From positions 1 through 5,316 of the IMG/VR virus record IMGVR_UViG_2671180903_000019: a stretch of 5,316 nt of DNA, one strand, 5' to 3'. Under the pieces are notes generated by a model. The model was not told the DNA's origin. It did not search any database and was given only the letters and a program-made list of their open reading frames with translations. Origin of the DNA: a virus. Its lineage: Duplodnaviria > Heunggongvirae > Uroviricota > Caudoviricetes. Each line of letters begins with the position of its first letter. Positions within the stretch are counted from its first letter, which is position 1. Both the position numbers and the translations under genes were made by a program. Positions 414 to 446 of the stretch are shown here, piece by piece.

Positions 414-446
414 ATGCCCCATTGATGCCCCATTGATGCCCCATAG
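414..446. repeat. Three tandem 11-bp direct repeats (ATGCCCCATTG, ATGCCCCATTG, ATGCCCCATAG)
   Basis: Read directly: copies at 414-424, 425-435 and 436-446, the third with two substitutions. The array ends 14 bp upstream of a consensus -35 hexamer. Confidence 0.9.

Follow-up and report, generated by a model that had tools for sequence, protein, structure and literature searches.

In this study, we asked what a short array of repeats at the end of a viral DNA stretch is for. The stretch, called here the window, is the whole of the 5,316 nucleotides analysed (positions 1 to 5,316 of IMG/VR virus record IMGVR_UViG_2671180903_000019). A preliminary description of it had pointed out three 11-bp tandem repeats, located between a prophage-host junction and an SOS promoter, and had read them as multimeric binding sites of a regulator, either activator or iteron-like, while adding that they could also belong to the attachment or recombination region. 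We therefore examined the repeats themselves, their position relative to the attachment (att) core, their occurrence in related phages and the integrase (Int) of these phages, and weighed the regulatory readings against a role in site-specific recombination.

Results

A phased array of four 9-bp units

The repeats are real. The sequence ATGCCCCAT is present three times at an exact 11-bp spacing in positions 414-444 of the window, where Tandem Repeats Finder (TRF) reported a period of 11, 2.8 copies, 100% matches and the consensus ATGCCCCATTG. Read over 414-446, the array is ATGCCCCAT-TG-ATGCCCCAT-TG-ATGCCCCAT-AG. The third copy, which had been called slightly degenerate, is exact over the 9-bp motif and departs from the others in its 2-nt linker only (AG versus TG). 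Moreover, the count of three holds for 414-444, but the array itself is longer, with a fourth phased copy, GTGTCCCAT, found at 403-411 in the same 11-bp register. The whole array can be written as RTGYCCCAT x4, with starts at 403, 414, 425 and 436. The distance of 14 bp first given between the end of the repeats and TTGACA has to be corrected, since this hexamer, at 460-465, is separated by 15 bp from base 444 and by 13 bp from base 446.

The longest run of lag-11 identity in the window measures 20 bases, a length that was reached in 0 of 2000 shuffles (shuffle maximum of 11). Chance is thus excluded for the array, as the preliminary description had presumed. The exact 9-mer ATGCCCCAT was found at one other place only in the window, at 1396-1404 on the minus strand. 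This lone copy has no phased partner, lies inside an espV-like gene and is also present in phage JLK-2012 (L001 1164-1172); it is probably due to chance or to a coding coincidence.

The array is located in the int-distal end of a prophage inserted in mlrA

Thousands of E. coli genomes contain an intact mlrA (yehV) gene to which bases 1-289 of the window are 99-100% identical, the homology ending at 289. The 5' part of this host gene, broken by the prophage, occupies 222-289 on the plus strand, with its ATG at 222. The segment 222-1505 shares 98.5% identity with the right (attR) end of the Stx-type phage JLK-2012, in which the 21 bp corresponding to 269-289 are annotated as attR as well as attL, the latter adjoining int at the other end. 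The equivalent of 269-289 is also marked as attachment site in the VT1-Sakai (Sp15) record. Because the mlrA homology stops at 289 and the annotated 21-bp att maps to 269-289, the array can be assigned to the prophage side of the int-distal junction, at a distance of 125-158 bp from the core centre. This agrees with the location first given for it, between the prophage-host junction (289) and the SOS promoter, the LexA box of which lies at 495-510, followed by a DinI-family open reading frame at 526-774.

The att core extends over 269-292 and includes, in addition to the 21-bp identity segment, the half-sites TGTCACG (272-278) and CGTGACG (286-292) on either side of a central TTACGCG (279-285). 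Together, these elements form a near-perfect inverted repeat at 272-292, TGTCACG-TTACGCG-CGTGACG, which was flagged as a hairpin by the terminator scan. It is more likely that this hairpin corresponds to two core-type Int half-sites that flank a 7-bp overlap than to a terminator, and we infer that TTACGCG is the overlap region. The motif of the array, TGYCCCA, differs from both core half-sites, and this difference, together with the distance of the array from the core, is what is expected of arm-type integrase sites.

The motif is found on both att arms of related phages

The preliminary description had suggested searching the motif in related prophage ends and comparing it with the att sites of phages integrated at the same locus. 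Relatives were picked by Int similarity alone and both of their att arms were then read; with three IMG/VR contigs added, 10 att sites were compared, those of JLK-2012, VT1-Sakai, VT2-Sakai (933W-like), phiP27, the Klebsiella phage RothC, SaltyDalty, mEp460 and the contigs L022, L056 and L121. The identity of their Int was 72% for phiP27 and for RothC, 65% for VT2-Sakai, 64% for SaltyDalty, 62% for mEp460 and 30% for L121. In all 10 relatives, pairs of TGYCCCA (TGGGRCA on the other strand) spaced by 11 bp are present on both sides of the att core, and the phages of the same locus, JLK-2012 and VT1-Sakai, have the same core and the same arm motif as the window. One set of motifs lies in the non-coding P arm and the other inside the 3' end of int, in a single orientation throughout.

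The P' arm of JLK-2012 carries AAAGTGTCCCATGTATGCCCCAT, that is two units 11 bp apart, located 54-72 bp from attL within the last int codons and oriented as the attR units. In VT2-Sakai, which uses a different attB, TTGGGGCAC-N2-TGGGGCAC is found inside the int 3' end; the other end of this prophage contains four TTGGGGCA units arranged as two 11-bp pairs, with no annotated dinI in the 1.5 kb that were read. The pattern of phiP27 is that of VT2-Sakai. In the phage genomes with an intact attP (RothC, SaltyDalty and mEp460), the P arm and the int 3' end each contain a single 11-bp pair, and these phages do with two units per arm, which is the minimum of adjacent units in this family. Such pairs were also observed in the P arm and the int 3' end of L022, L056 and L121.

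The geometry of the two arms is conserved as well. Counted from the core-proximal P copy, the first P' copy is reached after 195 bp in JLK-2012, 196 bp in RothC, SaltyDalty, mEp460 and L056, and 198-200 bp in L022, phiP27 and VT2-Sakai. Of the ten attP sites, nine have a spacing of 195-200 bp; the exception is L121, the most distant relative, with 159 bp. In mEp460 and L056, the spacing is kept despite an unrelated intervening sequence. In the window, GTGTCCCAT at 403-411 matches the proximal P-arm copy of the relatives, which is situated 195-196 bp from the first P' copy. Motif and geometry are thus conserved with the integrase lineage (61-100% Int identity) across differing flanking genes and cores. 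In the RothC genome (46.4 kb), only two TGGGRCA pairs exist, both at attP, and single TGGGRCA heptamers occur at chance level (13 observed versus about 11 expected). The two-arm distribution and the conserved P-P' spacing support the second suggestion of the preliminary description, namely that the array is part of the attachment or recombination region.

We also scanned IMG/VR with the pattern TGGGGCA-N4-TGGGGCA (14 defined bases), which gave 120 loci. An Int homologue was present at 69 of them, with the motif almost always at its 3' end; as the motif is inside int, the scan re-finds homologues, and these hits do not constitute independent evidence. At the other 51 loci, neither an Int homologue, within the flank that was fetched, nor the conserved P-arm block was present, and a 14-base pattern is expected by chance in such a collection. 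Runs of 3-5 TGGGGCA units in phase are found in six IMG/VR contigs (L055, L077, L120, L122, L067 and L026), the fetched flanks of which lack a homologue of this integrase. Such runs may represent P arms of prophages with a distant int, or arm sites of another integrase lineage.

The integrase has a conserved predicted arm-binding domain

The window's own int lies outside the window, and the integrase domains were read from the Int of JLK-2012, whose att-arm DNA is 98.5% identical. This protein matches the Pfam arm DNA-binding domain PF12167 over residues 7-70 (E=2e-24) and the catalytic domain of tyrosine recombinases, PF00589, over residues 203-396. Residues 1-70 are the most conserved segment across the family, with 70-89% identity versus 37-67% for residues 71-190, which are expected to be the core-binding region. 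In the Int of L121, both values are lower but rank alike (47% for the N-terminal part versus 18%). A conserved N-terminal domain followed by a variable segment fits with an arm motif shared by phages whose core and attB specificities differ, as do the yehV and yecE cores in an alignment.

Since the P' copies are coding, and always in the same frame in the six Ints whose 3' ends were examined (L002 723-760, L009 29-100, L011 30-100, L013 774-830, L015 810-860 and L014 150-208), the conservation of the P' motif could partly reflect a constraint on the protein. When translated, the P' units form a small island of conservation, (V/A)P-x-(M/L/V)(P/S)(H/Q), surrounded by the hypervariable remainder of the C-terminal tail of Int. 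The presence of such an island in a variable tail is suggestive, although not decisive, of conservation at the DNA rather than the protein level, and the C-terminal tail of Int may exist mainly to carry DNA sites.

The hallmarks of arm-type sites, as worked out for phage lambda, are a motif that differs from the core, copies in tandem on each of the two arms, a fixed geometry and a heterobivalent integrase. As the array combines a non-core motif, tandem copies on both arms, a fixed P-P' spacing and an integrase predicted to be heterobivalent, we consider it very probable, from this sequence comparison, that positions 403-444 contain the P-arm arm-type Int sites of a lambdoid Stx-type prophage inserted in mlrA/yehV, now located in its attR.

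Candidate accessory sites between core and array

Two further elements lie between the core and the array. The first is a P-arm block, ACGAAGATCGTCCAGGAGCGC, at 311-331, about 30-50 bp from the core, of which GCTCYTGGRCGWTCTT is conserved at the equivalent position in RothC, SaltyDalty, VT2-Sakai, phiP27 and L022 (only 64-72% Int identity) despite diverged flanks and different cores. The block is absent from mEp460 and L056. This block is possibly a site for an accessory (bending) protein. A search by eye for the IHF consensus WATCAANNNNTTR in 290-400 gave no convincing match. The second element, at 366-392, consists of degenerate direct repeats of about 10 bp that resemble GATTTCGACG (TRF: period 10, 2.7 copies, 70% matches). 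Direct repeats with an 11-bp spacing are found at the equivalent position in RothC (AAATTTCG, two copies), SaltyDalty (AAGTTCGTTAA, two copies) and VT2-Sakai (AAAGAACG, two copies), and we infer that the repeats at 366-392 are candidate sites for the excisionase (RDF).

Relation of the array to the dinI-like promoter

The SOS promoter of a dinI-like gene follows the array on the plus strand, at 460-510. It comprises a -35 box, the TTGACA mentioned above, a -10 box AAAAAT at 484-489, which starts 18 bp downstream of TTGACA according to the promoter scan, and the LexA box, CTGTACATAACCACAG, of the form CTGT-N8-ACAG. The dinI-like gene itself (526-774, plus strand) matches the Pfam DinI family (E=5.8e-15) and is annotated as DinI in JLK-2012, BP-4795 and other phage records, and the VT1-Sakai record annotates the homologous sites as a putative promoter and a putative SOS box.

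Given this proximity, the units could be arm-type Int sites and have a second use, in which bound Int, together with Xis, would also modulate the adjacent SOS promoter, in the manner of IntS and TorI on PintS at the KplE1 attL. Counted from the -35 box, the units occupy about -20 to -60, and there is a precedent for sites of recombination proteins that overlap and regulate a promoter (PMC2951348). However, the sites are upstream of the -35 without overlapping it and the juxtaposition of array and promoter is not conserved across the family; we regard this dual use as improbable.

It is more doubtful still that the array consists of operator or activator sites, or of an UP-like element, of the LexA-controlled dinI-like promoter, which would then respond to a regulator unrelated to recombination. 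The array does end 15 bp upstream of a consensus -35, and the E. coli phages of the yehV/yecE type keep a fixed distance from its distal end to the -35 at every copy number. In these phages, arm and dinI promoter are inherited as one block (about 91% identical), and the array is so tightly linked to the promoter that they alone cannot separate the roles of arm site and promoter site. Against such a regulatory role, motif pairs without adjoining dinI or promoter are the more frequent case among the relatives; they occur in RothC, where they come right after a convergent CDS, as well as in VT2-Sakai, phiP27 and mEp460, and a second set of motifs is found inside int, on the other arm. Moreover, the -35 of dinI is about 100 bp from the pairs in SaltyDalty, versus 15 bp here, while the att geometry of 196 bp is kept. 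The fixed position relative to the -35 that is expected of promoter sites is therefore lost in SaltyDalty, and the sites are also present where the promoter is absent. Thus, the part of the preliminary description that saw phased protein-binding sites in the copies is supported, while the activator or iteron-like role that it gave them is not, and the SOS promoter is a neighbour of the att arm rather than a part of the recombination site.

The number of units is polymorphic

Among related prophage ends, the number of units varies from 2 to 5, always in steps of 11 bp. The region is contained in about 460 E. coli records, 417 of which (about 90%) have a 90-nt, three-unit allele. The 101-nt allele with four units was found in 11 of these records, seven identical to the window and four divergent, with a VT1-Sakai-like background; five units were seen in strain 13E0780 and two in phages of the Stx1_14040 type. 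That only 11-bp steps are observed and that the four-unit state is found on two sequence backgrounds points to recurrent slippage or unequal exchange. The three perfect copies of the window are a minority expansion of a normally shorter array.

All units lie on the minus strand, and they differ in how widely they are shared. Unit 1, the core-proximal GTGTCCCAT (403-411), reads TGGGACA on this strand and keeps the 11-bp register of the array. The candidate arm-type site that follows, unit 2 (414-422), is present in nearly all related prophage ends, and unit 3 (425-433), also a candidate site, in most E. coli copies, which have the 90-nt allele, and is absent in Stx1_14040. Unit 4 (436-444) is arm-type-like; the array has one unit beyond the common three-unit allele, and this extra unit is not attributable to one position.

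This variation might suggest that the array has no function of its own and merely slips in the manner of a neutral microsatellite, with 2-5 units in 11-bp steps among near-identical prophage ends and an expansion that recurs on two backgrounds. At least the surplus units may indeed be neutral. However, a minimum of two units is kept on both arms, at a fixed spacing, in every relative down to 30% Int identity. Alternatively, the units could be bound by the excisionase or by a host factor rather than by Int, but the different direct repeats at 366-392 fit RDF sites better, and RDF sites are found on one arm only in the lambda paradigm. We give these two possibilities, neutral slippage and sites for excisionase or host factors, the least credit among the alternatives to arm-type Int sites. 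Iterons of a replication origin were rejected, as the array, flanked by the att core and dinI, has no rep gene or origin context nearby; in RothC, a distance of about 9 kb separates the pairs from the replication genes.

State of the prophage

None of the complete E. coli genomes searched contains the whole window. Bases 1-1505 match O157:H16 98-3133, and 1501-5316 match a separate prophage region elsewhere. The espV-like effector gene (ORF 979-1779) is truncated and is collinear with O157:H16 98-3133 and JLK-2012 only to 1505. From about 1501, the window carries a terminase large subunit, a terminase small subunit and an HNH module, found elsewhere in other genomes, and the junction between espV-like gene and terminase at about 1505 was seen in no complete E. 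coli genome. The frame of the terminase large subunit (1299-2624, minus strand) looks broken, its 441-aa ORF ending in out-of-frame-looking sequence at the espV-like fragment. A 27-bp tandem duplication (2688-2741; 2.0 copies, 85% match) is present inside the ORF of the terminase small subunit (2621-3184, minus strand). The element is probably a rearranged or deletion derivative, and the arm-type sites of this particular prophage may no longer be in use.

Discussion

If the units at 403-444 are arm-type sites, a scheme for the excision of prophages of this family can be proposed. The phage Int would act as a heterobivalent tyrosine recombinase, whose C-terminal domains would bind and cut the core at 272-292, while its N-terminal arm-binding domain would bind the TGYCCCA units described here and the matching P' pair in the int 3' end at attL. 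The excisionase, and probably also host bending proteins, would shape the approximately 110 bp between array and core, and the bridging of arm and core would assemble an excisive intasome, bringing the catalytic domains of Int to the core for excision. The extra units in the lineage of the window probably arose by slippage or unequal exchange of 11 bp, the fourth unit being a minority allele. In this scheme, the binding of Int to the array and the roles given to single units in integration versus excision are deduced from the comparison of att sites.

A more speculative extension, which we think unlikely, is that the array is a tunable element. The number of units (2-5) would then set the ease with which Stx-type prophages are excised from mlrA/yehV, and Int and Xis bound there would modulate the LexA-controlled dinI-like promoter. 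Such an arrangement would couple prophage excision to the modulation of RecA activity during the SOS response.

A search of the literature for arm-type sites of 933W, BP-4795 and the yehV phages found none, nor binding or recombination data for this Int family. The records that we examined annotate only the core duplication of 11-21 bp, the study of Nakamura 2021 defines core att sequences only, and no record or paper that we found names arm-type sites. The sites proposed here are thus of a known kind (arm-type integrase sites are described in general terms in PMC2951348) and apparently unannotated in this integrase family. Our comparison provides a concrete map of the recombination site for an Int family of medical relevance, which includes Stx1, Stx2 and effector prophages at yehV/mlrA, yecE and wrbA, and among them 933W-like phages. 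This map comprises the core, the arm motif TGGGRCA, a minimum of 2+2 sites, a P-P' spacing of about 196 bp and candidate excisionase sites. It is useful for delimiting prophage ends, for predicting whether remnants can be excised and for designing excision or integration assays. In addition, the copy-number polymorphism offers a natural series for studying the effects of surplus arm sites on prophage stability.

The closest systems are phages with an Int of the same family (65-100% identity), namely 933W/VT2-Sakai, phiP27, BP-4795, JLK-2012 and VT1-Sakai (Sp15), which share the arm motif and geometry of the window. Three of them, JLK-2012, BP-4795 and VT1-Sakai, also share its mlrA/yehV core, and the array of the window is one unit longer than in these family phages. 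The classical reference is phage lambda, for which the arm-type sites P1, P2 and P'1-P'3 of attP were reportedly described by Ross and Landy and by Landy in 1989. As in lambda, both arms of attP, which measures approximately 245 bp (here from about -160 to +85, counted from the core centre), carry a short non-core motif in directly repeated tandem copies spaced by about one helical turn. In both cases, the P' copies adjoin the int 3' end or overlap it, and Int has a separate N-terminal arm-binding domain. In contrast to lambda, the motif is TGGGRCA rather than C/AAGTCACTAT, all copies have one orientation, the number of units is polymorphic and the family minimum is 2+2 sites instead of 2+3. 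Moreover, Int belongs here to the Pfam family Arm-DNA-bind_2 and shows a weak similarity to lambda Int, in the catalytic region only (E of about 1e-3).

The attL of KplE1 (CPS-53)/HK620 provides another parallel. There, the arm-type sites of IntS and the TorI sites overlap the intS promoter, and both IntS and TorI repress PintS (PMC2951348). In both systems, arm-type integrase sites are found beside a sigma-70 promoter at a prophage junction, and this likeness makes it conceivable that the promoter here, too, is regulated by recombination proteins. However, the sites of KplE1 overlap the -10 and -35 boxes of the integrase's own promoter at attL, whereas those of the window are located upstream of the -35 box of an unrelated SOS gene, at attR.
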